From positions 558,001-622,000 of the forward strand of contig OY253678.1 in NCBI GenBank assembly GCA_958009085.1: DNA of 64,000 bases. Direction: 5' to 3'. Source of the DNA: Protoeuglena noctilucae. Taxonomy: Eukaryota. Below, piece after piece: positions 4,372 through 64,000 of this stretch (positions are counted from its first letter, which is position 1; every line of letters starts with the position of its first letter). The notes under the pieces were generated by a model. The model searched no databases, was not told the origin of the DNA, and was given only the letters and a program-made list of their open reading frames with translations. Position numbers and translations under genes: made by a program.

Positions 4372-6727
4372 ATGGGCGGGGGAGCCCGGACGCAGCCTGA
4401 CGAGCAGCAGGAGGGCAAGGCCAGCGTGCGCACCTGGGTAGGGGGCGGTGGCATGCCCATGGAAACGCTCGAGTGCCTGAGCGTCCCGAAGGTGCGATGC
4501 GCGTTCGCCCGAATCTCTCCGTGCCGCTGCCCTCCGCCCCTCGCGCCGAGTTCGCGTTGCGATCTGCACGGCGACCCCGGGTGCCTCGGCCGCAGCTGCG
4601 GGAGTTGTTCCTCCGGGTCTTCGGATCCCCCACGGCGTCCAACAACCGCGCCTGGCTCGTCCGGAAGCTCTCCGATCCGCCGGACCCCTCCGTCGGCCGG
4701 GGCCGGCTGTCCGCCGTCCGCAAGTGAGCCTCGCATGCAGCTGCGCTGGGGAGATGCCGCCTTGCCAATGAGACCTGGCACCGCACCGCGAGCGCCGCTG
4801 TCTCGCTCGCGCAGGAGGGACCGGTTCGCGCAGATCTGGACGACGGGCGACATCAAGCAGATGACACGGAGCGAGCGTGCGTACCTCCACCAGCACGGCC
4901 AGGCCAGCGCAGTGGCGGCGTCGCCGGCGGTGGGCGCGGCGTCCCAAGTCGGCGCCACGGGGCCTTCGCGCAGCACGCGCACCCGCGGGACGCCTGCCAG
5001 GGAGGCCCCCGTGCCTCTGGCGCCCTGCGATGTCACGGTGCAGCAGCGGCTCATCCCGGAGGAGGAGGCCAGGCGCTCCGTGCTCCGCGGCCGCTGCGTC
5101 ATGGTCCGCTGGCCGCCGGGCTCCCCGTGGGCGTTCGCCAAAGTCGAGGCCGTGCAGCATCAGGCGAGGGAGCGCGGCGTGGCGCGGGCGCAGGTGCAGC
5201 CGCGGACGCATCGGGCCAGCATCAACGCCCCCCGCGCGCGCGCCAGGTGGTACGAACTTGTCGACTCCCGTGGACTAGACGGCAGTTCGCTCGCTCGCGT
5301 GCGCAGGAGCCCCGCATGGTGACGCTGCGACTGGGCACGGAGGCGAAGCAGGGGCGGACCATGGAGGTGCCCCTGACCGAGGCCCTCCAACAGGGCTGCC
5401 TGGCGTTCCCGGAGTTCCAGTCCACCGCGTCGGCTGCGGAGGGCCCTTCCACGACTCCCTCTGCGTCGGCGCACGCCCGGCCCCGCACCCTCGCCGCCGC
5501 TGCTGCCAGCGAGGGCTCCTCCCCGGGCACCACCGCAGAGGCTCCGTCGGCCGCCACGCCCGTCGCGCTGCGCGTCAAGATCCGCAACCTCGGCCGCTTC
5601 CAGCAGCAGGCGAACGCGGTCGCCGGGTCCGCCACCAAGCTGCCGCCCGCCGCTGCCGCGCAGGTGCGTGGGGCGCTCGACAGACCCGCGGCCGCTCGCA
5701 GCGTCGGTTGCCGCCGGGATTTCCGCCCCACTCAGTCTTTTGTGCAGGAGGCCGGCGCGCCGCCTCGCGGCGCACGGGTCAAGCGAACCCGGGCCTTGGA
5801 AGGCACCGCAGACGAGCAGCCGGAGTGGCCGGAGGGCAGCGGCGAGCACGACGTGCCGTCCCCGCCCGCCGCGCGGCCCCGACGGGCGATGCGCCGCGGC
5901 CGCGGCCGTGCCGGCATGGAGCCGGCTGGGGCGGACGAGCACGCGGTTGCCGCCCCCGGCTGCCGGCGCGCGCCGCTCTTCCACGATCACCAGGGTTACC
6001 CCGCGGTCTGCGGCCCCTGGGACGACGACTGGGCTCGGACGCCGGAGATTCAGGAGGTGGCGGCCCTGCCAACCCCGGGCCTCCTCGTGCACAGCTCCCT
6101 GCCGACCGTGCCCAACACAGAGACGCACCGGGCCCAGGACACGGTCGCCATGGCCGGCGCCAACGGAGACTGCGTCAGCGGCTTGAGCGCCGCGGGCGCC
6201 GGGTTGCAGGAGTACGTCCCGCCGCTCCCTCACCCGCACGCTGCGGCGCTGGCGGAGGAGGCGAACGGGAAGCGCCATGCGCGCAAGCGCTCGCGCGAGA
6301 GCCTCGGGCAGCTGGCCCTGGGCCGCGCGAACGGCCGGGACTCTATCGACCCTTCCGTCGCCATCATGGGAGGGTCGGCGCGGCTCAGATGCGGGGGCAG
6401 GAACAGGCGTCGCAGATGCACAGCGCATGTCTGTTCGCTGAGAACCCCCGCGCGCCGCGGGTTGGTGCGTTGCTTTCAGCGAGTGGCAATTATGGCCACC
6501 TCTCTGTCCCTGACCGCAGCGGTGAGGGGCTCATACGGACGGACCTTCCCCCGTCCGCGCCCGTGGTCGCTGAAGCTCGGCCTTCCGGCTACGCGACGCG
6601 GGCTTCCGTGGCCCTCATGCCGACGCTCATGAGCGAGCTGGAGGCGGAGCTGAGGGGCCATGAGGAGGTGTTGGCGGGTCTCCTGGACGCGTCCACAGTT
6701 GGGGACATCAGCTGGCTCCACGAGTGA
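4372..6727 (+). CDS. Hypothetical protein with an N-terminal helix-loop-helix motif (DUF2924/HeH-like) and a possible Tudor-like beta segment
   Basis: Exons join in frame: METLECLSVPK|LRELFLRVFGSPTASNNRAWLVRKLS...; RGRCVMVRWPPGSPWAFAKVEAVQHQ|EPRMVTLRL; the last exon ends GDISWLHE* at 6727. The true start may lie in upstream exons (about 3363-4350). Confidence 0.55.
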
Positions 6728-7324: not shown

Positions 7325-8516
7325 TCAGTACCGGAGTCGGCGGACCCTCTCGTCCTTGAAATCCACCTCCGGGTCCTCTGGCAGGTCCGTCAGGATGGGC
7401 CGTGGACCTGCCTTCTGCTTTTCCACCTCCTCCGCCGTCATCACCTGCGTCGCAGGACCAAGTCAGGGTATTGAAGCCAAGTCCTCTCCATGCGATGTCG
7501 AGTGCCGGGCACGGCACCAGCCCTGCACCCCTGCTCGATGACACACACGGCCTGTCACGCCTGCGAGCCCGGCCTCAGCGCAGCACGCACCTTGGGCTTG
7601 TAGGCATCCCAGAGCAGTAGCAGTAGGGACGGTTTGTATGCCAGGAAGCCCGCCAAGAGGCAGCCCTCCTCAGCGACGGACAGGGGCCGGCCCGGGCTCA
7701 CAAAGTGGTTCCAAGCGTACACGCCGGCACCCAGGGCCACGGGCACCACAAGCCGGGGATTCCACGCGTGGCGGTACGCCGCCACCAGCTGCGCCGCCCT
7801 CCGCAAAACCACGTTCTCCACCTGTTGCGCCTCAAACACCCAGCTGCGCGTGCCCTCATTCACGCGGTCCACTGCAGGCAAACGGCCAGGCGGACGCTTG
7901 CCTTGGGCTGCGCAATGACACGAAAGAACTCGCAGCGTGGCGGGAGCCACTCACCGTCGCTGTAGAGCCAGGAGAGGTAGACTAGAGACGCACCCATGCC
8001 CACCAGGCTGCACAGCGCGGCCTCCCCGGACAGGACCAGGAAGAGGTAGGTGGTGAGGAGGCCCCCGCCCCGTGCCGTACGCCACCAAATCGTGTCCTTC
8101 AGCTCCTGGTACTCGCGCATGGTCTCTGCCTTGCACGCCGACACCCACGCCGCGTACTCCGGGTCCACGTCCGCGCTTCCATACAAAACCCGGTCGGCGA
8201 CGGAAGCAAGCTGACTGGTATTGGCGTCGTCACGCGACGCGGCGACGGCACAGCGCAGCGGCCTGCGGCTGCAACAAGCTCTTCTGGAACGTCGGCTTCA
8301 GGCCGGCTGGCACGGCCGCTGGGGCAGCCCCGTGGGATCCGTCACAAGCCAGTGACAGATGAATGGCGGTTTTGACAACGCGGCCCCTCGCCTGGCTCCC
8401 CGCGCACGAGGCGGCGCCTCCAGGGATGGATGTGAGGTGCTGGGGGGGCTGCTGACCCTGCCGGGGACCCTCATCGCCGTCGCCAGCGGCAGCCGGCAGG
8501 TTGCTAGTGAATACAT
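7325..8516 (-). CDS. CGL160/Atp1 (ATP synthase I)-like chloroplast membrane protein
   Basis: Four exons. A transit-peptide-like N-terminus (MYSLATCRLPLATAMR...RPLRCAVAA) is followed by MREYQELKDTIWWRT...SLVYLSWLYSD|VDRV...NPRLVVPVALG...GFLAYK, the PRLxxP / GFxxYK pattern of the CGL160 family. It ends ERVRRLRY*. Confidence 0.7.
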
Positions 8517-10028: not shown

Positions 10029-11373
10029 ATGCCCACGGGATGGGGAGGGTGCATCGGTGCGCCATGCGCGACGGCGCTCAGCCAGTGCACGGGGCCCGCC
10101 TTGAGGAGACAGCCGCTTCCCCAGCGCCCCCCGGCACGCGTCCATCGTCTCCCTTGCGCGATCAAGTCCCCCGACTTCTCGCAAACCGGCGCATTGGAGC
10201 GTTTGCGCACCAAAGACCTCGGCACGGCTCCCAGAGATGCATGCCATCCAGGTACGGCGCGCCAGTCCGCCACGGCGGCCCGCTTCGCGCACATACCGCA
10301 CCATCGTGTACTTTGTCGTAATGACTACGGCGTCGCGCTCGAAGGCATCCCGATGGGAGTCCGCTGCCGCCGCTCGGCCCCTGCCGGCTGGCCCATGTGA
10401 GACTTTCCGCCTCGTTGCTCGCAGAGACGCGGGATGCCGCCAGGGAGGCGGCCTACGGTAGCGTCGAAGTCATCACAGGGCCCATGTTTGCGGGGAAGAC
10501 GAAGCAGTTGGTGAGGGGCGCCGAAACAGCACTGTGGGCACGGAAAAGTGCAAAGGGGGACCCGCCGCACCGGCGATGCGACCCCCGCGCCGTTCGGATT
10601 GCACAGGAGCGTCGTCACGCTCGTCCTGAACGCAGTTGAGCAGAGTGCGGGAGTTGGAGAAGCGCGGGGACCGGGTGCTGTTGGTCAAGAGCGGCGTCGA
10701 CGACCGCTACTCCGCCACGGAAGTCGTCAGCCACGATGGAGAGCGCCGTGCGTGCGTCGCCGTGCCCGACTTGCGGAATCTGCTGGGCCGGCCGGAGCTC
10801 GCTGCCGCGCAGGTCGTCGCGGTCGACGAGGCGCAGTTTTTCCACGATCTCGCGCCCTTCTGCAACTTCGTGGCGGACTCGCTCGGCAAGAGGGTGATCG
10901 TTGCGGGTCTTCTGGGGAATTACAGGTGCGGCAGGGTCAAACTACCATGCGCACAAACCTGTGGCTGCTTCGTGCTGTGCTTGTGCGTGAGTTCAAACGG
11001 TCGGCGGGTGGCTTTGGTGTGCGCAGGCGGGAGCCTTTTGGACACATGGCTGAGGTGCTGCCGTTAGCGGACGCGATCACGACCCTCTACGCTCGGTGCG
11101 CCTTCTGCGAGGGTGTGGCGCATTTCACAGGCGAGGCTGCGCGCCGATTGGGCACGATTCCTCGCAAACTCCGCTCCCAATGGCTCTAAAGCGCCCACGC
11201 CTCGCCGCGAAACCCACGCAGTGCGCTTGCGGGGAGGGGACGCCGAGACGGAGGTGGGCGGGGCTGACAAGTACCAGCCAGTGTGCCGGAGACACTTTGA
11301 CGAGCATGCCCCAAACCTCGCCTTCCGCCAGCGCGACATGGCCGGGTGGGTGCAGTCGGGAGAGCCGTCCTAA
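10029..11373 (+). CDS. TK1: Thymidine kinase (TK1 type), probably with an organellar N-terminal extension
   Basis: Motifs GSVEVITGPMFAGKT, DDRY...VVSHDG, VVAVDEAQFF, VIVAGL, CAFC, VGGADKYQPVCRRH. Stop is TAA at 11371-11373. The start is uncertain: ATG 10029, or an upstream exon from ATG 9752. Confidence 0.93.
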
Positions 11374-21135: not shown

Positions 21136-24100
21136 ATGACCGCGGGGGCAAAGCGCGGGCCCAAGGCGTCCAAGACCAAGACCCGCATCGGTGAGCTTAC
21201 AGCACAGCGCCCATGCAGCAGCCCGGGACAGCGACGGGGCCGGATCGACGAAGCCCGTCCAAATCTGTGCATTTGCTTCTATGATGGCCCGCGCCGGCTG
21301 GCCCGCGGCGTCCCGGCGCGGTCCCCGGGCTCTCGCGCGGGTCTTCGGCCCGGTGCGACAGCGCTGTGGGCGCCCTGTGCAGGGGAGGCCGTGCTGACTC
21401 AGGAGGAGGCCGCGGAGCTTATGGAGCGCCTCACTGCGGCGGAGACGGGCACCGGGCCGGCTGTCCCGCGGGAGGAATTGGACCGCTTTTACAACACCCA
21501 CGCCCCGCCATGCCCGCTGGTGAGCCTCCCATCGCAACGCTCAGCCCGCCCGGCGCCCAGCCCCGCTCATCGCATCCGTCGCCCGTACATCCACGCCGCA
21601 CACACCACCACAGTCGCCCTGACTGCCCCCTGTCACCCCCGCAGTACGGCACCAATTGCCGGGGTCAGCGTGGGAACCCCAACTGCCTCTGTGGCCTGAT
21701 CCCCTCCGTCGGCGGTCACCGCAACCACGGTCTATGGACCAAGGCGAGTGCTGCCGCGGCCTGGGGCCAACTGGGCGCTTGGCGCTGGTCCCACCCCAGC
21801 CATCAGCGCTCACCACCCCATCGCCCAGTCGCCGACATCGGGCATGTCGAGTCGTTGACCATAGAGCTTTGTCGATTCAGATTACTAAGCTGGTTGACGA
21901 GTCTTCTATTTTCAGATCCCTGAGGAGGTTTCCCGCATGGGCCCGGACCCGGAGGCCACTCGCCGCAAGTCGGACGCGGGCGGGGTGGGTTTGACCAACC
22001 TGGGCGCCACATGCTACATGAACGCCGTGCTGCAGATGATGTACCACATCCGGCCTTTCCGGGACAGCATCCTGGCGCTGCAGGGGCAGGTGGTGGAGGA
22101 CCCCCTGGTGGGACAGACGCAGGCGAGGCGGGGCAGGGGAGCATCACTCGCCGCGATGGTGTCGCTGGTTGGTAGGGCATGTTAATCGCATTGTGTAAGG
22201 AAGGGCATGGGCAGTAACCCTGAAGGGCAGTAGTGGTATCGATCAAATATTAGTGTTACTTCCCTCTGATTCATTGCTGTACAATGGCCGCTCTTCCTGT
22301 CCCACCGCCAGCTGACTGCCTGCTTCCTGACCTGACCCCTCTAACCTCCCGCCCGCCCGCAGCGTGTGTTCGCGGAGATGCTGGCGGGCCCCAAGCAGTG
22401 CGTCGACACGCGCGCCTTCGCCAACACGGTCGGCGTGCGCACGGACGTGCAGCAAGACGGCTCCGAGTTCCAGGGCTTCTTCCTGCACGGCCACGGGGGC
22501 CTCGGGTCTCGCCTCGAGGGCCACACGGCCGGGCAGCTGACCAAGCAGCTCTTCGAGTCCACCACCGCCAGCGTCATGCGGTGTGAGTGCGGGCACGAGA
22601 GCCGCAGGTGACGGGGGGTCGGTCATGGGGACGCGGGATGGCACTTGCGGGGTTGTTGCCAAAGCACGCAATCTGTCTCTCGACCCTCTGACCCACCCCT
22701 TCAACCCATGCTGTGACCCACCCTTCGCGCCACCCATCAACTCACCCAGGGAGGAGCCAGTGTACGACGTGACGCTGCCCGTGAAGGACTTTTCCAAGAT
22801 CGAGGACTCCCTGGCGGCGTGCACGGCCCCCGAGCTGGCGTCCGACTACAAGTGCGAGTCGTGTGGGATGAAGGGGCACGTCACGCGGCAGCAGCGCTTC
22901 ACGCGGCTGGCGCCCTTCCTCATGCTCTCCCTCACCCGGTGAGGCACCGGCTGCACTTGCGCATCTCAGTCGCTCATTTCACTTGCCACGCCACGCATAC
23001 CATGCTGTGCATCTCACGTCACCCACCTTGCATTTCGCGTCACCCACCTCGCTTACCACGCGTCGCAGCTACGAGTACGACCTCCGCACTTTCCAGCGCA
23101 AGAAAGTCCACTCCCGCATCTCCTTCCCCCTCGAACTGGATGCGCAGCCTTACGCCGAGGCGGCCCCCGCGCACCCCGCGTCGGGCAAGGGCAGGCGAGT
23201 TCATGCATGATGCACAGGGTGGGGCGCTGTGCTGTGCTGGTAGGGGAGAGTGCTGGATTGTCTGGGCCAGGGTGCTGGCTTGTCACGCAGCGCGTCGCTG
23301 CAGCGAGGTATGTTACGTGATGCCCAGTCACTGTGCTTCGCTGGGCAAGCCGAGATGCAGCCGTGGAGCCCTGCTTGACCCCTTACTCCGCCCCCCTGCC
23401 CATTCCTTCGCGCAGGGGCGCCACTGCCACTTCCACCGCCACCGCCACCGCCACCGCCACTGCCACTGCCACGCACCTCTACCAATTGGCGGCCATCCTG
23501 GTCCACCGGGGCGTCGAGGCCAGCATGGGTCACTACGTGGCGCACATCCGGGACGGCTCGAGCGACCGGTGGTTCAAATTCGATGACGAGAGCGTGGAGT
23601 CCCTCGGGTGCCACCCCTTGGGAGCGGCACCCAAGGCGGCTCCCAGCCAATCGGCGGGCGGCGGCCGTCCCAAGGCAAAGGGCGAGGCGAGCGGGTCGCG
23701 CGGGGGCGGGGCCGTGGTCGAGATGACCTCGTCCGGGGACGGACCAGAGGTGGCATCGCCGGCAGCGGCCGCGCCTCTGAGCTTCCCCGTTGTGGGTGCG
23801 CCGGGCGAGGGGGCCAAGGGGCCCGCCGGGGGGCGGTGCGGGCGGGGAGCCAAGCGGCGGGCGGCGGCGGCGGCGGGCGACGGCGGGGACGACGACGACG
23901 TGGCCTTAGTCGCGGCGTCCCCGGGGGCCGCGGCGGTGACGCCTGTGCGGGGGAGCAAGCGCGTCCGGAAGCGGACTCTGATCGCGGAGCAGTTCGAGGC
24001 GGACGGGGGTCGCTTCCCCGGCTCTCCGCGACCGGCGGGCGCGCAGGCGATGGAGCCTGGGGCGGCGGCGGCGGCGGTGGTGGCAGAGGCGGGGGCGGGG

Positions 24101-27100
24101 CGCGGTGGGGGGCGTGGTGGAGGGAGGGGTCCGCGGAAGGGCAAAGCGGCGGGGAAGGGAGCGATGGGGAACGGGGCGTTGGTGGACGAGGATGTGATTG
24201 AGGTGGTGGCGGGTGGCGAGGGCGCGGGGGACGTGCCTCCCGAGCGCGTGGCCTCTAAGGATGCCTACATGCTGCTGTACCGTCGCTGCGACATGGTTGG
24301 GGCGGAGGTGGTGGTGGGGGGTCCCGGGCGGGCGCGGGGCGGGCGGGGGCGAGGTCGGGAGGGTGCAGCGAATGCGGGGTCAGAGGCTGATGCAGGGGCA
24401 GAGGACCCACTGTCGCTGCTGCGGGGGAGCGTGCGGGAGCTGGTGGAGGAGCAGAGGCGGGAGTTCGAGGCGCGGGCGGGGGAGTACCGGGAGATGCTGT
24501 CGATCCATCGGAAGCGCCAGGAGGAGCGGCAGGCGTGGGTGCGGGGCGTCGTGGAGAGCGCGCCGGTGCCGGTGGACGCGACCGATTGGCGCTGGGTGCC
24601 GGCCGAGTGGCTGCAGTCGTGGGCGAACGCCTCGGCGCTGGTGGGGCCCGTGCCGGTGCGGGAGCTGGTGTGCCAGCACGGGCGGCTGGCGCTGGCGGCG
24701 GCGCCCCGGGCCAAGCGGGTCACGGTGGCGGCGTACCAGGCGCTGGTCGGGGAGGCCGAGGGGCTGCGGGAGGGCGGCGCAGGGGACAAGCCGGGCGCGG
24801 CTGTGGAGCTGGGGCCGGAGTCGCAATGCGCCACCTGCGTGACGTGAGTAGCGAGGTTGGTAGACGAATTAAGAATGATATGCCAATGGCTATAGGTACT
24901 GTGGCATAAGAGGATGTTTTGTTTGCAGTCAGGAGCTGGCCAGGCACCAGGAGGACGGTCTGGTGGGGGAGGAGCGGGAGCAAGCGATGCAGCAGGTGAG
25001 AAAGTGTTGAGAGCAAGCGATGCAGCAGTTGTCAGTCGCTGCAGATCACACACCTTATGCCTTGTCACACACAGATACAGACACACATGCGGCCACCTTT
25101 CGTCTCATCGCCATTGCTCCTCTCATTACCATCCCTCGTCTCCTTGCCATTTCTCATCTCACTACCATTCCTCATCTCGTTGCCACCATTCGTTCGATTG
25201 CAGCTCGAGAGCCTTCTCAGGGAGCACACGGACGCGACAGCCCACGACGCAGCTGCGCACGACCAGGCGTCCAGCAGCGGGCGTGGGGAGGAGTTCTACG
25301 CCAGCCGGACGTTCCTGCAGGGTTGGTTGCGGTGAGCGTGTGCGGTGGGGTGATGGGTGGGATGGGTGCGGTGAGAATGTGTGCTGTGGCAGGCAGGATG
25401 GGTGTGGTGAGGGTGTATGGCGGGGGTGTAGGCAGGGATAATGCTGCAGTGAGTCATGACAAGGAGAGCCCAGTAGTTCTAGACATCTCGCCCAATCCTT
25501 GCCCGGTTTGTCTGCCCCCACCGCCCCGCGCCCCCCCGCTCCCCGCAGGCGCCGCACCCCACACCTGATGCAGCCGCGGACCGGGACAAAGGCCCAGCGC
25601 CGCCCTCCCGGCGCCACGTCGCCCACCGCAACCCTCCTCTGCCCCCACGGGGGTCTTGCCGTGGAGTCATCGCCCGTCACCAAGCGCGTCCGCCTGCCAG
25701 CGCATCTGTGGGCCTTCTTCCGGAGGCAGTGGGAGCGGGAGGGCGGGGAGGTGGTGCTATGGTGAGGCAGTGGGAGCGGCAGGGTTGGGTGCTGGCTTGG
25801 TTTGCGGGCAATGAGCAGCAATTTCAGCTAGGGATGATGTACGTTGGACTTTATCCCAATGAGATATGATGAAGTCGAATCATGTGCATGGATTTTGAGG
25901 CAGGGCACTCCATGCTAGGCGTTCCCACGTGCCGTAAGCGCACCCCTCGTGCCTTCCCTCCCCGCAGCCCCCCGAGCGGCGCTGTGCCCCCCCACGTGGT
26001 CAAGCTGGTGCGGCCGGACGCCTCCAAGTCCGACGGGAAGACTGACGCGGCCCCTGACTCGGGGCCCGAGTCGCTGGCACCAGGGATGGGGCATACCGGG
26101 GGCGGCGCGGTGCATGAGCACAAGGGTGAGGACGGGGCGCGAGACGACAAGGAGAGCGATGCGGAGGACGGTGCTGAGAAGGCCGGGGGCGGGGCGAAGC
26201 GCGGGCGTGGGCGTGGGAGGGGCCGTGGTGGGGCGAAGGGGCGAGGACGGGGCAAGGGGCGGGGGCGGGGGCGGAGCAAGGCGGGTCGGGCCACAGACGA
26301 CGCGGAATCGACGGAGATGGATGCGGAGGTCGCGGTGGAGGCGGCTGCGGGGCCTACAAGGGTCGGGGCCGTGGACGGTGCTGGGGACGGGGTCAGTGAT
26401 GCCAGGGGTGGGGAGGGGTGGCCGGCCCCGCCGATGGTGGAGTTCCCCGTCGGGCGCGTGCATGAGTGCATGCTGTGCCGGTCTGCGATGGAGGTGGAGG
26501 CCGGGGAGGAGGCGCGAGTGCGGGCGGACATCGAGGCGAGCGCGGCGCACGGGTGCAGGGGGCTGGGGTGTTGGTTGCTTGCAAGGGTGCTGGGGCTGGG
26601 CGCGATTTTGATGGGACCAGAGTGGGTGCAGGGTCGGTCGTACGAGGATGTGCACGTCCTCAGCGCCCACTGTGCTGAGACCCAGCCTCGCGGGCACCTG
26701 ACTGCTGCACCCCAGCCTCGTTACCCGACGTGCGCATGTAACCGCTGACCCCACCTCCCGCCCCTGTCCCCAGGACCAGCGCCTCTCCCTGCCCGACCTG
26801 GCATCCGCGCCGGCGTCCCACCTCTCGGCGCAGATCGTCGCGGAGCGCCAGACGTTCTTCGCCATCCCACGTGCGTGGCTCGACAAGTGGCGTGCTTACG
26901 TCAACACGTCCGGGCGACGCATCGCGGCCGCCGAGCGCCCGGGGCCCCTCGCGGACGCTCTGTCGGTGCTGCGGTGCCGGCACGGCCGCCTGCTGGCGTC
27001 CCTGCCCCAAGTCTCCAGCCAGCGGGGGCGGTGGGCGGTGGTGCAGGCACCGCGCTCCGAAGACCCCACCGAGCTCTCCCTCGTCAAGCAGCGCGAGTTC

Positions 27101-37860: not shown

Positions 37861-37866
37861 CCGACA

Positions 37867-40144: not shown

Positions 40145-40176
40145 CATCTCGCCTTCCTGGTCCACGCTCACGTCTC

Positions 40177-42941: not shown

Positions 42942-42955
42942 CGCACGCCCTCGTG

Positions 42956-47711: not shown

Positions 47712-47821
47712 GGCGCGTGGAAGGACGCCCCCGCGACTCCCCAACGGACGGACCCGCCCTCGCTTGCGCGGGTCGTTCAGATTAATGCAATCGCAACTGC
47801 TACGGCCCCGATTCTGACAGG

Positions 47822-49626
47822 ATGACGCCTCGCGGGCGCTCGCAGACACGCAAATGTGGGACCCGCGTCGGTGTGGGGCGGCGTGCGGGGGAACGAGCGG
47901 TCCTTTTCTCTTATCGAGGAGAAGCGTCGGGTATTAAAGCAACTTGTCGTCTCGACAAAGAAGTTCAAGGTGCGGAGAGCGAGTGGGCGAGGGTCCCTTG
48001 CCTCGGACGCCTCGGATGCGCGTGTTCAGCGATGAACCAAGACCCGGCCGCCGGAGCATGGCAGCATCTTTATGTCCTCTTCGCTGCGCCTGACCTGTCG
48101 GGCAACCTCGCCCATCCGCAGACCTTCTTCCTCACGAACCCGCTGGCCGACCAGCTGTTGACCCAGCTATTGCTCTATATGACGGCCAAGCTGCAGTGGC
48201 AGGGCGTGGAGCACATCAGCGCCAAGGCCCGCCTGCTCAGCGACCCGCAAAAGGCAAGCGTGGGGCTGCATGCTGCGAATGTGAGCCTGTCTGGACATTT
48301 CGCTCAGTCTGCGACTCTGAGCATCGATTTGCATTTCCCTGCGCAGGCGGAGGAGGCTCGCAACATTGTGTCTGGTCGCAATTCGATGGACTTCAAGCGC
48401 GAGATGCAGGAGGCTCTCACGCGGGTGGCGCCCGTGTACGCGCACATCGTCATGCAGTGCAGCGACCACAGCAACATCCACCGCGACCGAGTCTTCTTCG
48501 AGTCCCTCTACGAGGCTACCGCGCACACGATCTTGTTCTCGCTCCAGGGCCTCGTGGCAGGATGTGAGTCACTTCATGTGCTGCCACGAACCCTGCCGCT
48601 GCGTACGTGAGGTGCCGTTTGTCGCGTGAGAGCTGCCGTCCCGCGTTTCGCAGCTTCGGATGTGCTGGGGAATTTCATCAACGTGGACCTGGGTCGCTTC
48701 TTTCGCACCGACTACTACAACATTAACCTGCGCCGTTCCAAGGGGGAGAAGATGGTGGACATTCTCACCGTCAGCGAGCTCTACGAGCTGCGGCATCTCG
48801 ACGACCAGCAGGAGGCGAGGGCACTCGCTGTCACGACGCTGCGTGACCGCCCAGACGCGGACGTAGGACGGGATGCTGTCCCACTCGGGGGATGCTCTCC
48901 TAGCACTTGCAACCGACGGCTGCGTCTCCCGAGGTGCCTCGCAGATGTCGGCCGAGCTCCTCGCGTCCCTGCACGACCGGACCAAGGAGACGGGCCTGCA
49001 CGACTCGTACGGGGCGACGTCCGGCACCATTTCCAAGCTCCTCAACCGGACGCAGGTTAAGGCGCAGGGAGCACTCCCAGGGCGGCACTTTGAAAAGACT
49101 CTCATGGAGCTGCACCTGGAGCCACCACCTCCCGATCCCAGCAAGGTGCGCCGTGCTAGTGCAGCACAGCGGGGCACGCGGCGTGTCATTGTGGCGCATT
49201 TTGCGCTCGCCTGTAAGCGCCGTGACCCGTGGGCGCCGTGCAGCTGGCCGACCTTACTGCAAAGCCGCCCGTTTCCATCCACAGAATTCAAACGTGGTCC
49301 CCGGCGCGAGTGCCTCGGACCTACGCTTCCTGGAGGACCTCCGGATGCAGCTTCTGGGGCGCATGCGGCCGGGCGGGGGCGTGCGTACCACGCGCATGTC
49401 CATGGCGGCCTCGATGGTGGATCCCTCCACGCTGCGGCCCTCCCTCGCGGGGACAATGGCCAGCGGGGACGTCGCGACGGGCGGACACGGGGCGGACGGG
49501 CGGTCGGAGGCCAGCGAGGACTCGCCGCTCAGGAATAGTGGCAAACGGGGGCTCAACACGGCCCCTGGTCCCAAGCGCGGCATGATGAGCCGCATCCGGG
49601 CCATTGCTGACCAGATGCCCGATTGA
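47822..49626 (+). CDS. PPP1R36-like protein (protein phosphatase 1 regulatory subunit 36 family)
   Basis: VYAHIVMQCSD...DRVFFESLYE...INVDLGRFFRTDYYNINLRR resembles the PPP1R36 motif DxxFFESxY...GRLFRTxxFN. The start is ATG 47822 or 48032. Confidence 0.6.
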
Positions 49627-50080: not shown

Positions 50081-52319
50081 TCAGATCCCCGCCTCCTTCA
50101 GAATCTGCTCCAGCATTTCCTCGTTATCGTACGCGATCTCCTGGATGTCGTGGTTGAAGTGCCGCTCGATCTCGTCGAGCCGGGACCGCTCCACGTCATC
50201 GGCATACAAATTGAAGGCGCAGCCCCTGCGCCCGAAGCGCCCCGAGCGCCCGATGCGGTGGAGGTACGTCTCGAAGTCGACCTTGCTGCCCTGCCTGTCC
50301 GTCGGGACGTGGAAGTTGATGACCAGCGAAATTGTTTCGAGGTCGAACCCGCGTGCCAGCACGTCCGTCGCGATCAGCACCTGCGGCCATCGAAAAGCAA
50401 CAGAAGCGTCACCCGCCGCCCGCTCCTCGCCACTTGCTTGCCACGTGCGCCGCAAGCTGCGCTCCCCAAGCGACACTGGGTCAGTGCACGCATGTGCTGC
50501 CATGGTTCTCGCCTTGGTCTTCCCCTCCCGGAACTCCTCCACTACCCGATCGCGCTGCTCCTTCTCGAGGTCCCCGGAGATGTTGGTGACGCTGTAGCCC
50601 TCCTTCCGCAGGGCCTCGGCAAGCTGGGAGGCCGCCGACTTGTACTTGACAAACACGATGGTCTGAAGGAGAGGGCCAACAGGGGGCGGGGCGGTCAGGG
50701 CCGGCTGGCAGGTGCGATGCAACCACAGATGGGAGGCGAAGAGCTCGAGAATCCACGAACAAGCCAGGCCAGCAGTGAGCGATGAAGCCTGCGACTGCTG
50801 GGTATGGCACATTGCACGGGGCTGCGCACCTGGCAGAGCTTCTGCGCGAGAGAGAAGGCGTCCTGGAGGAACTGGATCTTCCCCTTGTCGCCGTGGCACT
50901 TGACGCGGTACTGCTTGATCACGTCCAGCGACAGCTTCTCACGGGGAATGAAGACGTTGTTGGCGCCCGGAGCCACCTTGACGGCAAACGCCTTGACCTT
51001 CTCATCGAACGTGGCCGAGAAGAGCAGGATCTGCACGTCCGGTACGCGCCTGCGCAAGAGCGGAGGGCAGGGGGGCACGCATGGAGCAACCGCGGGGCAC
51101 TCGAGACAACTCTTGCACTCCAGCCAGCCGGCGTGGCCTGTGCGGCGCAGCGGTGCCTCCCGCACCTGCGGATATCGTTGATGAGTCGCATCGAGTCGTC
51201 TCCGAAGCCGTCCCTGGCCAGCATCTCGTCGGCCTCGTCAAACACCAGGATGCGCATCCCGTCGACAGGCAGGATGCGGTTCCTCCCCATCCAGTTCTTG
51301 ATCGTCCCGTGCGTGCCGATCACGATCTGGTCGGAGATGGCGTCGTACCGCCTGCCCACCGTGTCGGCCGTGCTGGCAATCTGGATCGACGTGTGCTTGC
51401 CCATCTGCGCCACTACCCGCACGTTCTGGACCACCAGCTCCCGCGTCGGGCACATGCACAGCGCCTGGGGAACGCGCATCTTCGGGTCCACGCGGGAGAG
51501 CATGGCCAGCGCAAAGCACGTCGTCTTGCCGGACCCGTTGTGCGCCTGGGCAATCATCGATCGGAAGGGCGGCCGCAGGATCATCGGGAGCGTCTTGGCC
51601 TGGATCTTCGAGGGCCGCTCAAACTTCATCTCCTGGTAGATGCCCTGCAACAGCTCTGGGGACAGCCCCAGGTCCTCGAACCGCTCCGCCGCCCGGTAAA
51701 TGTCGCCCTCATCTGTCGTAGACACCTGGACCTCCGCCTCCACCTCCCGCAGCCCCGGGACCTTGAGCGACAGATCCGGCTCGTCCACGTCGTCCGTGCC
51801 ATGCTCACCCAGCTGCAAGGGGCGCCGCACACAGATCAGAGAGGGCAGCGGAGCAGCACCGAGCCCTCGGCAGCAGGCTCCGCACCTGGCTCTTCTCCAG
51901 CAACTTGGCCACGTCCGATGCCTTCACCGCGGGGTCTTGCGAGCCCTGGGGGGGGTCGTCCTCCGTCATGTCCGCCCATGACTGTGGGCACGGCGTCCCA
52001 GTGCGCGATTCGGGGGCGGGAGCGGTGGGGTCTCGTTGACCATGTCGTACATGCCGGCGAGAATATCACGAGGTGGGAGCGGGAGGCAGCGGCATCGGCG
52101 GGACTGACAAATGCGACCGGCGGCGCCGTCGAAGCCGGCCAGCCAGCGCTGTGGTCCCAACACTGCTGTCCCGCGACAGGGGAGCGACAAGACACGACTG
52201 AGAAATCATACTGACGGGCATGCCATCTGCCTGGCGCCGGGATCGCGCCAGCCGGGCCCTGCAGACGTCGAACATGAAAAACAGCGTGCGGCGTCGTTCA
52301 TTACCTCCTTGGCCGCCAT
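50081..52319 (-). CDS. DBP5: DEAD-box RNA helicase DBP5/DDX19 (plant RH38/LOS4), mRNA export
   Basis: [72 protein letters not shown]. The first micro-exon MAAKE at 52305-52319 is inferred. Confidence 0.95.
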
Positions 52320-52720: not shown

Positions 52721-55700
52721 ATGGCGGGCTCGAAGAGAAACGTGGGACGGGAGAGGGAGGATCGCGGCCTGCGCGCCATCGTAGAGTCGCTCTCCGGCGC
52801 CGTGAAGCGGCAGGACAGCCCAGCACTCCTGGAGGCGCTCCAGGTGCCCGATGGGTCGCCTTTCCTCGCACCCAATCAACGGCGTCCGTAGCACTTGCTT
52901 ATCTTGTTGCCGCACGTCGGTCCACGGACCGCCGGGAGGCCTCGGCCCGCGGCCCGGACCCCAAGGAACTCAAACTGTCCCGACGCTCGCTGCGCCTGTT
53001 GTTGAGGCCTGGGCGGATGGGACACGGCTGGCCAGATGGGGTGCCGTCGGGGCATCATCGCGGCAGCCCCCGCGCGTCTGCCACTGCGCCGGCGCGCTTG
53101 CGATGGGCGTGCGTCGACTTTGCCCGTGCAATGCCGCGCGCATGGACGCGTTTTCCCCCCTCCTCCCGCCGCAGCGCGCCCACGACGTACTGGAAGGGGC
53201 GCAGCAACAGGACACTGGCATGAAGCATGCCACCAGCGCCCTGGCCAAGGCTGTTGTTGACCTGGGGCTCCTGCAGACCCAGGTGCGTCGGCGACCCGGC
53301 ACCCGGCCCCTCGTCGATGCCTTGCGGGGCTTCAGTTGCGCTGAAACCACGCAATGCCGTCCCCGCCCCCGCAGGACCGCCTTCCGCGGGCCTACCTGGC
53401 GTCCTGCCTGGCGTACGTTTTGAAAGTCCACGCGCCCGAGTCCCCTTTCTCCGACTCCCAGCTCCGCGACGTCTTCGCGCTCATCCTCCGATCGCTGCAG
53501 ACGGACTTGCAGGACCGCGCCGGGTGCGTGCCGGCTGCCTGCCGCCCGTTCTCGTCGCCGCCCCGCCCTCCCGCGCCCACCCTCGCTTCGCGTCCCCCCC
53601 CCGCAGCCGCGCCTTCCCCGTGGCCCTCGGGTGCCTGACGACGCTCGCGCAGGTCAAATGCTGCCTGCTCCTGCTCGATCTCGAGTCCGACGAGCTGCTG
53701 GTCGACTACGTGCGGGAGCTCACCCGCGTGGTGAATGAGCACAACAGCGGGCACCTGCCCGCGACCGTCGTGGCCGTCCTCGTCCCGCTCATCGAGGAGT
53801 CCGAGGGCCTTTCCCAGGAGCTGACGGAGGCGCTGTTGGGGCCACTTGTCCCTCCCCTCGCGACGCGCGGTGCGTGATGGCACGTGCACCGCCCCATTCA
53901 ATCGCACCTCCCCAGCCGCGCGGCCCTTCAACGCCCCCCTCCTCTCGCCCGCTCTCAGAGTCCGCGGCGGTCGTGAAGGACGTGCTGTATGGCGTGGCAA
54001 ACCCGGACGCCCACGCCTCGCTCCTTCATTACGTCATGGAGGCGCTGCAGGGCACGGCGGGCCCCGGCGAACTGTCCAACCAGGCGCATGCCCTGGCCGC
54101 GCATCTGTACCGCGCCGCGCCCCAGAGCATGCTGCCGGCCCTGGCGGCCCTGGCGAGCGAGGCAGTGGCAGAGGATGAGGGGCGCCGGGCCCAGGCCGTG
54201 GACGCGCTGGGCGGCGTGCTGATGGACCCGACGTGCCGCGCGAGCTCCGACGCCCCGCATGTGCTGGCGGCGCTGCTGGGGCGCGCCGTGGACGCCAGCG
54301 TGGGCGTGCGGGAGCGCGTCGTGCGGTGGTGCGGCCGGGGTCTGCGGGACCTGCCGGACGGCCCGGCGCACGCGAGCGTCGCCGAGGCCGTGCGGACGCG
54401 GCTACTGGACCAGGAGGATTCCGTGCGGCTGGCGGCGGTGCAGGCAGCGCTGGCGGCGGCTGCCGCGCGTCCAGGGCTCCTGGCATCCCAAGGCGCCCTG
54501 CTGGAGGCCCTGCTGGACCGCACCCGCGACAAGCGCCCCGCCGTGCGCGCCGAGGCCTGCCGCGGCCTGGCCGCCGCGTTCCAGGGCGCCGTGCGGGCCG
54601 CCGAGCCGGGCCCGGCAGATGCCCTGGGACCCTTGGCCCGCGTCCCGGCGCGCCTCGTGGCCTGCGCGGCGCTGGACCCCGAGCTCCGCGGGCACCCCTC
54701 GCTCGAGCCTCTGCTCACGGGGGAGGCTCTGCTGCCGCCCGACCTCCCCGTCTCGGAGGCAGCAGCCGTTTGGGTCGAGGCGCACCGTGCTGCGGAGGAG
54801 CGGGATAGGACGGCGCTGCAGCACGTTCTGCAGGTCAAGGGCACCGTGAGACGCGAGGTCACGGCGCTGATGGACCTGAGGCGAGGAGCGCGTGCCCGTC
54901 ACACTGCCTTACTCGCGACATGGAGGGGTTCGAAGCCACGACGATGTGTCGTCGCGCACCCTGCCCCTCGGCCTTGCCGTGGACTGAATGGGTCGCTCAT
55001 GATTCCCCAGTCTCTACACCCCACCCGCAGGCGACAGTTCAAAGAGGCTCGCAAGGGCCAGGGCTTAGGCAGCATGGGTTCCCAAGACCTGGACCGCCGA
55101 CAGCGGGTGCGCGAGTTACTTGACGGCCTCCAGCAGCGCGTGAGGTCTCTGGCCAGGCTCACCTTCCACGACGTGCCTAAGGTGATGCAGAAGCGCCAGT
55201 GATGCGCGGCTCCGCTCTTCGCATTCACACGGCAAGGCTCGAGCGCCACACTAGCCACACTAACCCCGGTTGTGGCCTGGCTCCGCCAGCACAAACTCTC
55301 GCTACCTCTTCACTGTCGCCCAGTTTATACCATGCACCGCTGACAGCTCAGCGACCTGAGCCCTCCCATCTTTCGGTGCGCCCTCGCAGGCAGAGCAGGC
55401 CTTGCAGCGCCTGGTGGACCACCGCGACAACAGCCTCTTTGCCGCTCTGAGGCGTCTCTGCCGGGCCGCTGCCACCGTGGAGGACGCGCGGGCGGCGGCC
55501 GCCGAGGTCCAGCAGCGGTTCGGCGGGGCGCGCTCGGCCGGCGCCGACGCCGTCCGGTCCCTCTGCGCGTACCTCCTGCCCGGCCCCGTGTCCCCCGCCG
55601 CCGTCGCCGCCCTCGCCGGCGTGGCCTCGGCCGCGGGTGCTGCCAGGGACGTGGCCGACGCGCTGGGCCTCTTGCGGGCCCTGAGTCAGGCGGCCCCGGA

Positions 55701-57662: not shown

Positions 57663-60013
57663 ATGGAGCTCCAGAGCCGCAGTCGGCCCAACTCGCTCAA
57701 GGGCAATGTCATCGACTCGGCGCTGCCGTACCGGCAGGCCCCGAGCAGTCACGAGGAGGGTCGCCTCACGCCCGACGTGGAGTTGCAGCCGCTGCAAGGT
57801 GCGAGGACGTTGCGCCGGCGTTTGTGGCACTGCAGCGCGAGAGTATGTCAAAGATGCTGCGGGCGTGCTGAGAGTGGCAGATTCCCTGCCATTTGCAGAT
57901 GGGCGGGAGAACAGCGGGGTGTGGGGCCTGCGGAAGCGATGGGCGTGGAACTGGCGCGCGCTGCTGATCGGCACGGCGGTCGGGGTCATCGTAGGGATCG
58001 GGATCGGCATCCAGGTTTCGATCGCGCAGGCCAAGACCGCGGGGGGACGCAGCTTCAACGTGGCTGTCATCGGCGACTGGGGAAGGCGTGGGGCATTCAA
58101 TCAGCTGCAGACGGCCGACGCCATGGGAGCTGCAGCAAGCAAGGTGATCCATGCCACATCCCGCAGTGGGCTTGATTGACTGGCGCTTGCTCTTCCCTCT
58201 CTCATCGGGCGTGCGGGTGGGCGTGACGGATTGCAAAAAACTGCCCCTGCCCGCCCGCTGCAGCATCCCGTGGACTTCGTCATCTCCACTGGCGACAACG
58301 TTTACCCCTCAGGCCTCTCGTGAGTCGCTGAGCCGGCATGCGTAGTCCAGGGGTGTCACGACGAACGGGTGGGGCGCGGCAGGCACGCAAGCAACGAGGT
58401 GCCGCACCTGGCCGCACGCGCAGAGGCCCCCACGATGTGAACGACTTCCAGGGCAGCTTCTCGAACATTTACACGGCGGCGTCCCTCAAGGTCCCCTGGC
58501 ACGCCATCCTTGGCAACCATGACTACGGCGACGGCGACCACTCGCAGTCCCCCAACTCGTGCACCCTGGTGAGCCGTGGCGGCGCGGGAGACGGCCCTGC
58601 TTCACCCACAATGTCACCCCCGCATGGCTCGCTGTGTCGGCCCTGCTCGGCTTGCTCCGACCTGCGCCTGTGACCCCCTGCAACATCCCCCATTGCTGGA
58701 GAGGCACGTGCACCACCGGTCGCGCCCGCAGTACGAGAACTCGTGCACCAACGTGGGGGAGTTAAATGAGTGCTGCTTCAAGCCCGAGCACGAGCTAGAC
58801 AGTCGTTACCGGACTGAGTCGTGGGGAGACGCCCGCTGGCACGCGTACCGGAGCTTCCAGCTGCAGCCCCAGGGCCGGACGGACGTGGAGTTCTTCTTCA
58901 TGGACACCGTGCCCTTCGTCACCAGCTACAAGGTGAGAGAGACAGGGGCAGGGCGAGCGGGTTTGGCGTCCACCGAGGGTGTGGTGTGGTGCGGACAGGT
59001 GGGTGATGGTTGGCAGAGAGGGGTAGAGCGGTGGCGACCTGCAGTGACGCCCGTGTGTATTTCGCACTCTGCCAGTTGCCAGCTGCCATTCGGTGCCAGT
59101 GCGATGCGTTGGTGCCATCTTCGCAGAGCACCCTGTGGTACGCTGGGAGCGGGGACTCTGGCCTCAACCACCAGAGCTGGCGGATGAACTTGATGGAGCT
59201 GGACAACGCGCTGGGCGCGTCGTCGGCCCGCTGGAAGATCGTCGTCGGCCACCACCCCGTTTACTCATACTCGAGCCACGGGTGAGCCAAGCAAAGCAGA
59301 GGCTACTACTACTACTCCCGGGGCATGGCGAGCGCCCGTTGATGCATGGCGGGGGTGGCAGCTGGGCAGTGACGCCAACAACAGGACACGCAACTCCTGC
59401 GTCGGCACCCTGCAGGCACACGAAGGAGCTGATCGACAACCTGGTCCCTGTGATGAAGAAGCACAAGGTTGCCCTGTACGTCAACGGGCACGACCACTGC
59501 ATGCAAGTCATCCGCAAGGACGGCATCACATACGTGACGAGCGGGGCGGGGTCCAAGGCGAGTGACACACATGAAGCGACGCGCGCACGTGTTGCCTGCA
59601 CCTGTCTCACCAGGGATGGATGCAGCTAGTGGCATGGAGCGTTTGAGCCGGTGCTACCAAACCCCGCGCTTCCGTCGACTGCGCAGATCACGCAGGGCTT
59701 CGTCAACCTGCCCACGGCGGACGGGAGCAGTCCCAGCGACGCCCTTCTCCTCTACGACAAGGTGGGGCGTTTACTCGATAATGCCATTCGCATGACCTGA
59801 GTGATGCATGGGGCGGCGTGCAAGTGGTCACCGGCTGCGTCTGCTGCCAGCGCACCGCGACCCAGGCCTGGGGTGATGCACCACGCGCCCTCTTTCGTGC
59901 CGCAGAATGGGTTTGCCCTCTTCCGTTTCGAAGGGTCCAACACCTTCTACGTGGACGTGTATGGCATTGAGCGACCCGAACCGGTCTACGTCCACACCGT
60001 GCCTCGTCCCTGA
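57663..60013 (+). CDS. Purple acid phosphatase (small TRAP/PAP17-type) with an N-terminal membrane anchor
   Basis: All five metal-ligand motifs are present: IGDWG, TGDNVY, LGNHDY, VVGHHP, NGHDH. Also TSGAGSK and a TM segment [20 protein letters not shown]. Confidence 0.93.
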
Positions 60014-61115: not shown

Positions 61116-64000
61116 ATGCACAGCCTTCGATCTTCACGGGCGCAAGAGAAGGCGTGCAGGACCCTGGCGAAACCCGCCGCGATTTTGTCGAGCGCTGGCT
61201 CCTGGCCCCTCATATTCCGACGTGCAGCTGCACAAAGCCGCAGCCTGCCCACGCGGAGGCGAGCACGGTGCATTGGGTAGCAGCTGTCCGGTGGAAAGCG
61301 CCTGTGCGAGGGAGGCGCGGCGGATGCGGGCGAATCCATTCTCCCCGCGCAAGGTCGCCCTGCGACTGAGCGTGCTGGACCTCTTGGCCAGCGAATACTT
61401 GCTCGCGGAGGGTCTTGGGGCGTCGGACCAGGGCGAGGCCTGCGCCGAGCAGCGGGGTGCCGCGGTCATCGATGAGGTGGTGGCGATGGTTCGAGAGGGC
61501 AACAGCATGGGAGCGATAAAGGCAAGGGGCCCCCGCGGTGACGGGCAGGGTCGGGTCTGCTCGTCACGAGGGCACGGCGCCCATTCTTCCACGGGGCGCG
61601 TCGTGCGCGGCCCGCGTACGGGTCGTCGCTTTGTGTGCATCATGACGCTTTCGCTGCGCCCGACCTGTGCAGTTGGCGGAGGCGCAGTGCCCCCAGCTCC
61701 TCAAGGACGCCCACGTCCACTTCAAGCTGCTGAAGCAGGCGTACCTGGAGTCTCTGCTGGCAGTTTTCGCTGGAGACACACACAGAGATGAAGCCAAAAA
61801 GCTGCTGACCCCGCTCGGAAAGGTAAGCGTGCGCGGACGCGTGGAGGCATGCCCTAGACCATTCCCTGCCGCTGCATGGCCCCGGGTGCGCGCGTCCCGC
61901 GATATCTGCCGCTATCCGCCACACAGGCAGCACACTGTGCGTATCCTGAGGCGTTTTCCGAGATACAGCAGTGCGCGATGCTCCTGCTGGGCGATGCGGA
62001 GGCCGTTCGCCAGCAGGCCGACCAGGTGACACTCCTCCCGGGCGCGCTTCGACGCGCCGGCCGTCCTTCGACGCTTGCAAACCTTCCCCGTGTCGTGGCG
62101 TGTATTGCAGGGGCGCGTGGAGCTGGGGCGCGCGCTGCAGCGCGTGCTGCACCATCGCCAGGGCCGGGAGGACCCTCCTCTGACCCGGCTGCTCAAGTAC
62201 ATGTCGTACATCTACATCCAGAGCTCCTCGAACGCCATGAAAGGCCCCGACGACGGCGAGGTCTACGCCCTGGCGCTGGAGCTCCTGGCGCAGGCACGCG
62301 ACCCGCCGACAGGTGATCAGACGCATGCATTCAACGATTTGGGGTGCAAAAGTGGCCTCTCTGGTCCTCGCCCGGTCGGTCCACGCGTCTGCCGCTCGCG
62401 CACGCACGCAGTGCCCGAGGTGCTCCCGTTACCCGTCAGCCGTGTCCGCGAGGCGGACGTGATGCACTTGCACCGCCACCTCGGGTCGGACACGGAGGTC
62501 GCGCGCGTGGTCCTGGCGGCGTCGAATGGCAACTTGCAGCGCGCGTTCGACTCCGAAGTTCAGCGCATGAAAGTCAAGTGAGACCAAGGGGGGTTTGGGG
62601 TGTGGGGTGTGCGGGGTGGGGTGAGTGAGTCCCAGCGTGGTGGTGTGCGTCCCCCACGCCCACCCAGCGACCCGCGCCCCTCTGCCGCAGCTCAAAGCTG
62701 CTCAGCAGCCTCGTGTCCGAGTACAGCGTGTACCGCGGCCTGATCGACGAGGAGGAGGCTTCCACGTCAGGCCGCATTGATGGGGGGTCGGGCCAGCCCA
62801 GGTGACCGGCGCCCGCGCTGCCCTAGACCAGGCCGCGTGCGCCGCCCCGCAGCTAGTGCTAGTGCCGTGACGAGGGCGGGAGTGAGGCCATGGGCGATGC
62901 CACTCTCGCCGCCCTGACCCCATCCGTGAGTTGTGTGGGTGCCAGAGGTTTGCAAGAAGCTCGCACCGCCGCCCGCCCCCCGCAGTAGGCTGCGATGGGC
63001 GGTGAAGGCGGGTGCCGGGCAGGTCGACGTCGACGTGGGGGAGTGGAAGGACTACCGGGACGGAGCCCCTCGGGAGTTGATACGCAAGATCTGGGAGATC
63101 CGTGCGATGTTGGAGGCCAAGGATTTCCGAGGCGAGACGCCTTGCAGCTCTGTAGACGGATGGGAGGCGGAGCGCGCGCGGTGCGGCGGAGAGGGCCGAG
63201 GGACTTCATGCTTGGCGGCCTGCGATGGGGCACAGAGGGGTCGCACGGCGTGCGCCAACTTCCCCAGACTGCTTAGGCGATTCTGTTTCACCGGCCTCGC
63301 AGGGGCTGCCGAGGCCATCGCGAGCCTGGTCAAGGTTTCCGACGCCCAGTCCGACCGCGCCGCTCACGCCGAGCAGGGCTCCGGGCCTCGCACCTCCTGG
63401 CTGCAGCGACGCGGCGCCCTGGCATCAGCGCAGTTCGAGGCGCTGCGTGCGGAGGTCCTGGCGGCCGCGCACGCCGGCGCCGACCCCAGCGACATCCTGG
63501 CCTTGTTGCACGACTGTGTGGCACCCCTGGTCGCCCAGTTCCAGGCGACCCTCCTGCCGCGCATGAAGGAGCTCTCCCTTACGCTCCTCGGCGACCGGGA
63601 CCTCGTGGTAGCCGAGCCCGACCCGTTCGTGCTGTCGGACTTTGTCAGTGCGGCGCTCTCGGGCAGCGTCGAGGTGAGGGCGGAGCCGAGCGATGCCTTG
63701 GGGCCCAGGCGCGATTGTCTGGGCATGGCACGTGCTTGCTGGCCCTGCTCAGTTCTCCAAGCCAGTTGTATACTCATCGCCCTGGCCCACGCAGCTGCGG
63801 ACGCCTCGCCTCGTCTACCTCCTCTCGGCACTGCTCGAGGCCCACAAGGTGCGCAGCGGCAATCCTTGGCGCGGGCATCGGCGATACGTCATGCTCATCT
63901 CGCAGCGCTGCTGGCTTGCCATGGTGACACTGGCGACATCGGCGCTATGGGTGGCGTGAGTGGCACCATCTCTTTGACCCTCGCAGAGCTGGTTCCTGCG
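61116..64000 (+). CDS. LisH/CTLH/CRA-repeat protein (Arabidopsis At5g66810-like); 3' end lies beyond the window
   Basis: LDLLASEYL (LisH-like), MVREGNSMGAIK|LAEAQCPQLLKDAHVHFKLLKQAYLE (CTLH), AYPEAFSEI, DPPLTRLLKY, NGNLQRAFDSEVQRMK and LVSEYSVYRGL. A second CTLH-like unit follows after 63000. The start is approximate. Confidence 0.75.

Follow-up and report, generated by a model that had tools for sequence, protein, structure and literature searches.

The 64,000 nucleotides analysed here, hereafter the window (positions 558,001–622,000 of the forward strand of contig OY253678.1, assembly GCA_958009085.1), come from Protoeuglena noctilucae, a GC-rich marine green alga carrying at least one flagellar gene, and about 11% of the introns modelled in them start with GC instead of GT while ending in AG (GC-AG introns). 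The window is gene-dense with short introns, shows a GC content of 63–74% in 2-kb bins and 0.88 at third codon positions (GC3), and contains a single gap of 200 N at 56236–56435. Pfam matches to single exons include thymidine kinase, ubiquitin protease, CFAP58, RNase P p30, AP2 and PDS5, among others. The best named matches of the DBP5 helicase (60–65% identity) are found among core chlorophytes; in a tree obtained by a quick method from 59 of 120 DBP5 matches, the query groups with two clusters on a long branch, which does not fix its class; an affinity with pedinophytes (70% GC) is a guess.

The original prediction, made from the letters alone, listed 16 GC donors, all with an exonic AG followed by GCGAG or GCAAG. 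Reading every coordinate (numbered from the first letter of the window) bears this out: all 16 are AG/GCRAG (the slash marks the exon–intron boundary), namely AG/GCGAG in 14 and AG/GCAAG in 2. On both strands this motif occurs 40 times against about 27–32 expected under Markov models, which is barely above chance, and therefore the case rests on splicing evidence and not on motif frequency. On that evidence the list is mostly right. Indeed, 13 of the 16 introns are supported, four by transcript-derived sequences, five by protein homology and four by a gene model (Table 1), whereas 5164 and 61259 are doubtful and 8391 is plausible only.

The window sequence is present in four marine metatranscriptome runs (X1–X4), all from one study. 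These runs were compared with positions 36236–56235, i.e. 31% of the window and 5 of the 16 GC sites, and the junction figures rest on the best 15 of 46 joints, picked by support. Thirteen of these 15 joints are GT-AG and two, 43211 and 50512, are GC-AG. When checked against nearby GT donors, as had been proposed with the original prediction, GC..AG is the only register at both sites, no shift giving GT-AG; this answer extends to those 15 joints. The donors at 48254, 48815 and 54881 are absent from them, which is no evidence either way, and the unspliced contigs of X2 and X4 span GT introns too, so that they are uninformative on whether GC introns are retained. Pfam RNase_P_p30 matches the gene that carries the 43211 intron. 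In the DBP5 gene, the length of the 50512 intron is a multiple of three, and the intron is stop-free; a protein with 100% identity (P0001), derived from a contig of 1791 nt, reads straight over it with the predicted motif GKTK/VL restored, and such an insert is missing from those aligned homologues that extend to this site. Two other GC donors, 48254 and 48815, are required by P0121, a transcript-derived protein from a 1657-nt contig that maps across six exons. The donor at 48254, previously rated weak, is thus real, and is used despite an in-frame GT (AAT/GTGAGC, 48281) 27 nt downstream. As this gene was looked up for its GC sites, it confirms the sites and not the rate. The listed contig pieces of X1–X4 are without any letter differing from the window. 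An assembly error at the donors was rejected, since an independent contig (X4 record 21) is identical over 42951–43237 and DNA runs contain 99–100% of sampled words from 46201–56200.

Protein homology favours GC at five donors. Against a thymidine kinase profile, the model using 11131 scores 151.5 bits versus at most 144.2 for GT models (eight distinct models, seven with GT donors); the gene model alone chose GT 11113 over it. In the gene related to USP48/UBP26, the model with 21744 is the top of 22 by 7.7 bits on a profile of 22 ubiquitin-protease relatives, and plant loci are continuous over this junction (GLWxK followed by V, I or M without break); on the ubiquitin-protease profile, the one with 22123 leads 28 models by 18.7 bits. 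VTSGAGS, the end of the exon preceding 59558, corresponds in the alignment to VLSGAGN in purple acid phosphatases of solved structure, and the GT rival at 59534 would delete these residues; the restored phosphatase motif claimed earlier is therefore retained. The PDS5 Pfam match (PF20168) extends to the last codon before 54881.

The gene model points to four additional donors, 23195, 26536, 61522 and 63132. At 23195, the homology score from a hidden Markov model (HMM) is equal for the GC and for a GT at 23180. For the ubiquitin protease, the search yielded the genomic frame P0139 together with relatives; for the gene at 61324–63848, where a transcript-derived protein was sought, the sole result was the genomic open frame P0137. 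Among the last three candidates, the intron proposed at 8391 would take out the one stop that separates an ATG from the downstream frame, its GT rivals have poor flanks, and the gene shows a weak Pfam match to CGL160_C. The donor at 61259 was already rated weak by the original prediction and remains so, an ATG at 61324 making it unnecessary.

Table 1. GC-AG introns and candidates in the window, with the evidence for each
Feature	Span	Strand	Length (nt)	Donor	Gene	Evidence or remark
GC-AG intron	43128..43211	-	84	CAG/GCGAGC	RNase P p30	RNA joint in X1, X3
GC-AG intron	50381..50512	-	132	AAG/GCGAGA	DBP5/DDX19 helicase	RNA joints in X1, X3
GC-AG intron	48254..48346	+	93	AAG/GCAAGC	gene without Pfam match	transcript-derived P0121
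GC-AG intron	48815..48944	+	130	GAG/GCGAGG	same gene as 48254	P0121; model gain 7.2
GC-AG intron	11131..11221	+	91		thymidine kinase	homology; Pfam TK
GC-AG intron	21744..21915	+	172		USP48/UBP26-like ubiquitin protease	homology
GC-AG intron	22123..22362	+	240		USP48/UBP26-like	homology; missing in relatives P0142, P0146
GC-AG intron	54881..55030	+	150		PDS5	model gain 12.9; Pfam PF20168
GC-AG intron	59558..59686	+	129		purple acid phosphatase	homology
GC-AG intron	23195..23415	+	221		USP48/UBP26-like	gene model only, gain 11.0 log units
GC-AG intron	26536..26773	+	238		USP48/UBP26-like	gene model only, gain 3.0 over GT 26650
GC-AG intron	61522..61672	+	151	AAG/GCAAGG		gene model only, weak margin, gain 1.0
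GC-AG intron	63132..63302	+	171			gene model only, gain 8.4
Candidate GC-AG intron	8269..8391	-	123		N-terminal part of CGL160-like gene	plausible, unproven
Candidate GC donor	5164..5306	+				doubtful; gene model prefers in-frame GT 5194 (CAG/GTGCAG)
Candidate GC donor	61259..61353	+				doubtful; no in-frame ATG upstream of proposed exon

The rate was obtained with a custom gene finder that trained itself on the window, starting from a seed of 17 transcript-supported introns and ten long exon cores. Its donor matrix derives from GT sites only and its prior for GC was 5%; at the seeded sites its calls are not independent. The first run gave 118 introns, including 11 GC introns that correspond to ten of the sites listed earlier and one at 56614, rejected as an artefact because of its poor flanks next to the N gap. 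The total score of the model was 4405 with GC allowed, 4332 with GT only and 4328–4350 with each of 11 decoy dinucleotides. Most decoy picks (32/45) lie no more than 65 nt from a GC site, indicating that an intron is needed there and that no good GT exists. In one-by-one testing, the model used 11 of the 16 listed sites and none of the 24 other AG/GCRAG sites. It missed 48254 and 11131 and therefore undercounts GC donors. A second, uncurated run gave 12 GC introns among 121 (8.6–10.1% across confidence cut-offs). Curation dropped eight of these introns (56614, 48281, 11113, 6374, 28196, 46899, 43069 and 5194) and added three (48254, 11131 and 52304), leading to 13 GC introns among 116, i.e. 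11.2% (confidence interval, CI, 6.1–18.4%) for this 64-kb window. The rate first proposed was about 12% (about 16 in about 125). The curated figure differs from 1.2% with p = 2e-9 and from 7% with p = 0.06. The RNA joints alone (2/15) give a CI of 1.7–40%, with p = 0.0096 against 1% and p = 0.035 against 2%.

It could be argued that this rate is overcalled, a few of the GC donors being real, most others giving way to a nearby GT and the genome standing at 2–5%. Transcript evidence exists for 4 of the 16 sites, the RNA-only interval reaches 1.7%, three sites are doubtful, and the data come from a single 64-kb window with RNA from one study. However, four sites in about 120 introns already make 3%, and adding the five homology-supported sites leads to 9 in about 120, or 7–8%. 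Furthermore, neither the preference of a GT-trained matrix for listed over other AG/GCRAG sites nor the lower scores of the GT-only and decoy models fits such overcalling, which we regard as very improbable.

The GT donors of the window (consensus G/GTG(A or C)G) fall into two classes. Among 103 of them, 56 carry the exonic AG, 48 carry RAG at +3 to +5 and only 16 carry both, the two sides forming a seesaw (RAG present and absent in 16 and 40 donors with AG, versus 32 and 15 without; p = 7e-5). Two such classes have been tied to U5 loop 1 and to the U6 ACAGA box by Parker et al. (PMC11732430), who, in the part of their article available to us, report that in humans a GC donor requires the two sides together to make up for C at +2. 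In the window, AG/GYRAG is found in 13/13 GC donors versus 16/103 GT donors, and GC occurs at none of the 87 weaker donors, which agrees with the prediction that GC donors are used routinely, given flanks that compensate. The greater degeneracy of GT donors, also predicted, is borne out by the same counts, a contrast in strictness that is inflated by how the sites were found. All four transcript-shown sites fit AG/GCRAG, which would happen by chance with a probability of 0.0006 if they were GT-like, or 0.024 for the two unselected sites. In GC donors, positions -3 and +6 are free, and +3 is mostly G (11/13). Matches to the U1-complementary consensus are more numerous in GC than in GT donors when +2 is left out (6.1 vs 5.3, p = 0.0008) and similar when it is included (6.1 vs 6.3, p = 0.18), and the predicted duplex is weaker (-6.0 vs -7.4 kcal/mol). 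Compensation by the flanks, as originally proposed, is supported; the involvement of both donor classes (the U5/U1 and the U6/U1 sides) fits better than U1 pairing alone.

GC donors remain weaker signals than GT donors. On the sense strand within genes, AG/GTRAG is a donor at 16/16 sites, whereas AG/GCRAG is a donor at 13/22 and unused at 9/22 (48254 and 11131 being placed among the donors and 5164 among the unused sites). Together with the lack of GC at the 87 weaker donors, these counts speak indirectly against the variant U1/U6 of the original prediction, in the sense of an snRNA that would accept GC as readily as GT. In RNA, the AG/GCRAG at 40952 is read through and that at 40456 is skipped inside a GT intron. 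The remainder of the intron is alike in both groups for length (84–240 nt for GC introns) and GC content; the acceptor is CAG in 13/13 GC and 102/103 GT introns, and YTRAY is found in 4/13 and 19/103. Introns of 3n length without stop show a weak excess among GC introns (5/13 vs 16/102, p = 0.06). U12-type introns, whose donor consensus continues ATCCT, were rejected, as all the GC donors continue GAG or AAG.

The reading that we favour, with a probability of roughly two in three, is that these are ordinary U2-type GC-AG introns, maintained at a high rate by a conditional tolerance at +2 combined with a GC-rich composition. C would replace U at +2 only in donors that have both the exonic AG, which would pair with U5 loop 1 and U1, and the intronic RAG at +3 to +5, which would pair with the U6 ACAGA box and U1. 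In a GC-rich genome, C would be favoured at free sites, and +2 of doubly strong donors would drift towards C against weak selection only, up to about 45% GC. The observed GC share of doubly strong donors is 13/29 (CI 26–64%), i.e. a GC:GT ratio of 13:16. In intron interiors, C/(C+T) reaches 0.623 overall, 0.668 after G and 0.565 between two Gs; 13/29 does not differ significantly from 0.565 (p = 0.26) or 0.623 (p = 0.057). A role of GC-rich composition, part of the original prediction, is thus likely, 13/29 being near the intron-based expectation. The log ratio between the GC share and the expectation is 0.5–0.9; at mutation–selection–drift balance this ratio is the scaled cost of C at +2, so that the cost would be weak and +2 looks nearly neutral at doubly strong donors. 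The small nuclear RNAs (snRNAs) would be canonical, no variant being needed to account for the GC donors; the GC donors probably arose from T to C, and the window is presumably representative of the genome.

The literature, in the sections available, contains elements of such a process. Neutral fixation of GC in strong context has been proposed for mammals by Churbanov et al. (PMC2490688), who did not detect a significant influence of local GC on conversion. Donors with stronger complementarity to U1 tolerate a change from GT to GC (Lin et al., 10.1101/479493), and splice-site GC correlates with GC content across kingdoms (PMC7072748).

Several points weigh against this reading. The strictest compositional expectation (0.668) is rejected at p = 0.017, and the gene model, trained on this window, can miss GC donors with weak flanks. 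No Rfam match, hence no snRNA, was found anywhere in the 64-kb window, and no splicing-factor sequence was seen. No orthologous GT donor was found that would show GT-to-GC conversion; a metagenome scan returned 80 loci with 34–66% identity, and neither this organism nor a close relative was among their sources. The introns at 22123 and 50512 are missing in the nearest relatives seen. For example, the DBP5 frames of the P0002 cluster run without interruption, on contigs of up to 86 kb, and are devoid of the 50512 intron; such absences fit gain here or loss there. Lastly, Volvox, Chlorella variabilis and Auxenochlorella are annotated with 0.06–0.7% GC-AG introns in the available supplement of PMC6310983, which means either that annotation hides GC donors or that GC content is insufficient.

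These low annotated rates (below 1% in some GC-rich green algae) can also be read as a sign that the lineage has changed its checkpoint on +2, through a variant U1 or U6, or through U1-C, LUC7, Prp8 or SNRNP27K, composition then filling the space opened. At strong donors, a GC share close to one half greatly exceeds what the roughly 1% of humans and plants would imply, and the GC at 48254 beats a GTGAG donor 27 nt away. However, full compensation is required here as in humans, the GT donors display an ordinary two-class pattern, and AG/GCRAG is left unused at 9/22 sense in-gene sites versus 0/16 for AG/GTRAG, including the two that RNA shows to be read through or skipped; we therefore hold a changed checkpoint to be unlikely. 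Similarly low odds attach to the proposal that the GT rule is conditional in this lineage, +2 being free at doubly paired donors via relaxed U6, Prp8 or U1-C proofreading due to an identifiable change. If this were true, the alga would be an intermediate towards GC-majority splicing of the Emiliania type, reached independently in green algae, and would allow the permissive change to be mapped.

The introns missing in relatives also bear on a different origin, in which the GC introns are recent gains that arrived with their GC donor, either as introner transposons or as exons turned into introns at AG/GCRAG. Introners with GC donors exist in pelagophytes (available part of 10.1101/2021.10.25.465678), and the GC introns show the 3n stop-free excess (p = 0.06). 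However, the DBP5 homologues are without any insert, and a mild 3n excess is general to GC-AG introns according to the available part of PMC7072748. All-versus-all blastn of the 116 introns of the window found nothing shared beyond chance matches of 17–30 nt, lengths are non-uniform, the longest terminal inverted match is 0–7 nt (GT mean 4.7), and junction repeats are the same as in strong GT donors (3.3 vs 3.3). An introner origin was thus rejected for these 116 introns, which show no similar copies, uniform length, terminal inverted repeats or target-site duplications, and recent gain as a whole appears improbable. The introners of Pelagomonas and Aureococcus share the frequent GC donors; their repeated copies of about 210 nt with terminal inverted repeats are not seen here.

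Frequent GC-AG splicing in this alga is real, but the flank-compensation rule is already described for human GC donors, and similar or higher rates occur in other GC-rich algae. The U2-type GC-AG introns of humans and plants (about 1%; PMC2490688, 10.1101/479493 and PMC11732430, in their available parts) have the same ends, an AG acceptor and a stronger rest of the donor, and, like those described here, require the exonic AG or -1G and +5G. In contrast, GC-AG introns are about ten times commoner here, with mostly G at +3 and a free +6, nearly half of the doubly strong donors being GC. The baseline of about 1% used in the original prediction holds for humans and plants (plants average 1.2%, PMC6310983) and understates algae. 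Indeed, the annotation counts given in the available supplement of Pucker and Brockington (2018, PMC6310983) reach 173/2044 (8.5%) in Ostreococcus tauri, 8046/114347 (7.0%) in Micractinium conductrix, 7067/124435 (5.7%) in Chlorella sorokiniana and 495/8831 (5.6%) in Micromonas pusilla. These algae belong to the same lineage (Chlorophyta) and show the same magnitude, 13/116 not being significantly above 7%. Their counts of 5.6–8.5% may be inflated (Medicago has 5.1% with poor validation), whereas four sites are transcript-supported here.

Emiliania huxleyi, with 56–64% GC donors and about 4% GA donors attributed to GC content (Feldmesser 2014, PMC4028052, available part), is likewise a GC-rich marine alga with routine GC donors and canonical AG acceptors. 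However, it is an unrelated haptophyte, and the window has about 11% GC, no GA donor seen and little gain from the GA decoy. GC-majority splicing of this type was rejected, as most introns, including 13 of the best 15 of 46 RNA joints, use GT. The available parts of PMC10639083 and PMC3488318 give the usual GC-AG baseline only, and the available main text of the pedinophyte genome preprint holds no splice-site data. We found no paper treating high green-algal GC-AG rates as a result, in a search outside which most subscription journals lay.

A high GC-AG rate by itself does not show a new splicing machine. It has practical consequences, since gene finders expecting GT would miscall roughly one intron in nine here. 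For example, our own gene model mistakenly took the GT at 48281, the donor in the transcript being the GC at 48254, and the five GC introns that are 3n and stop-free would be read through. The 13:16 ratio of GC to GT at doubly strong donors is a new detail that offers a direct measure of the cost of C at +2. Across algae, it would allow testing whether GC-AG frequency equals base composition multiplied by the share of doubly strong donors.

Several genes that carry GC introns show other features. The USP48/UBP26-like gene (21136–28206, +) holds 4 of the 13 GC introns; an unusual motif, QQDGSEFQG, is shared by its nearest relatives P0142 and P0146, whose introns are fewer over the part seen. 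The P0121 gene (47871–49626, +) encodes a transcribed protein of at least 383 amino acids, two of its five introns being GC; P0121 matches nothing in Pfam or the Atlas and nothing else in the searched set of longer proteins. Between this gene and DBP5 the contigs have a few bases in common (49877–49882), which suggests overlapping 3' ends. The first DBP5 intron (323 nt, 51982–52304, -), which is seen in RNA but escaped the gene model, follows a first exon of five codons. The 200-N gap interrupts the PDS5 gene, whose frame breaks near 56610–56700 (stretch 56436–57341); there the model forced a 58-nt pseudo-intron, possibly owing to an assembly indel.

RNA contigs are also continuous (39987–40405) between the convergent genes 39216–40144 (+) and 40180–41986 (-), which likewise suggests overlapping 3' ends. 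An ankyrin/TPR protein has a histidine-rich tail at 40190–40300 (-), a repeat that attracted many unrelated X2 contigs. A small three-exon gene with GT introns (8932–9515, +), outside the intron count, presumably encodes V-ATPase subunit e, judging by eye. The exon at 63305–63673 (within 62986–63673, +) gave an Atlas lead to tethering subunits of the COG8/Exo84 type, with a score of 0.89, under threshold. Finally, in a thymidine kinase frame on a viral contig (L006, about 1–900), the P-loop is preceded by a long insertion that, by eye, is intein- or homing-endonuclease-like.

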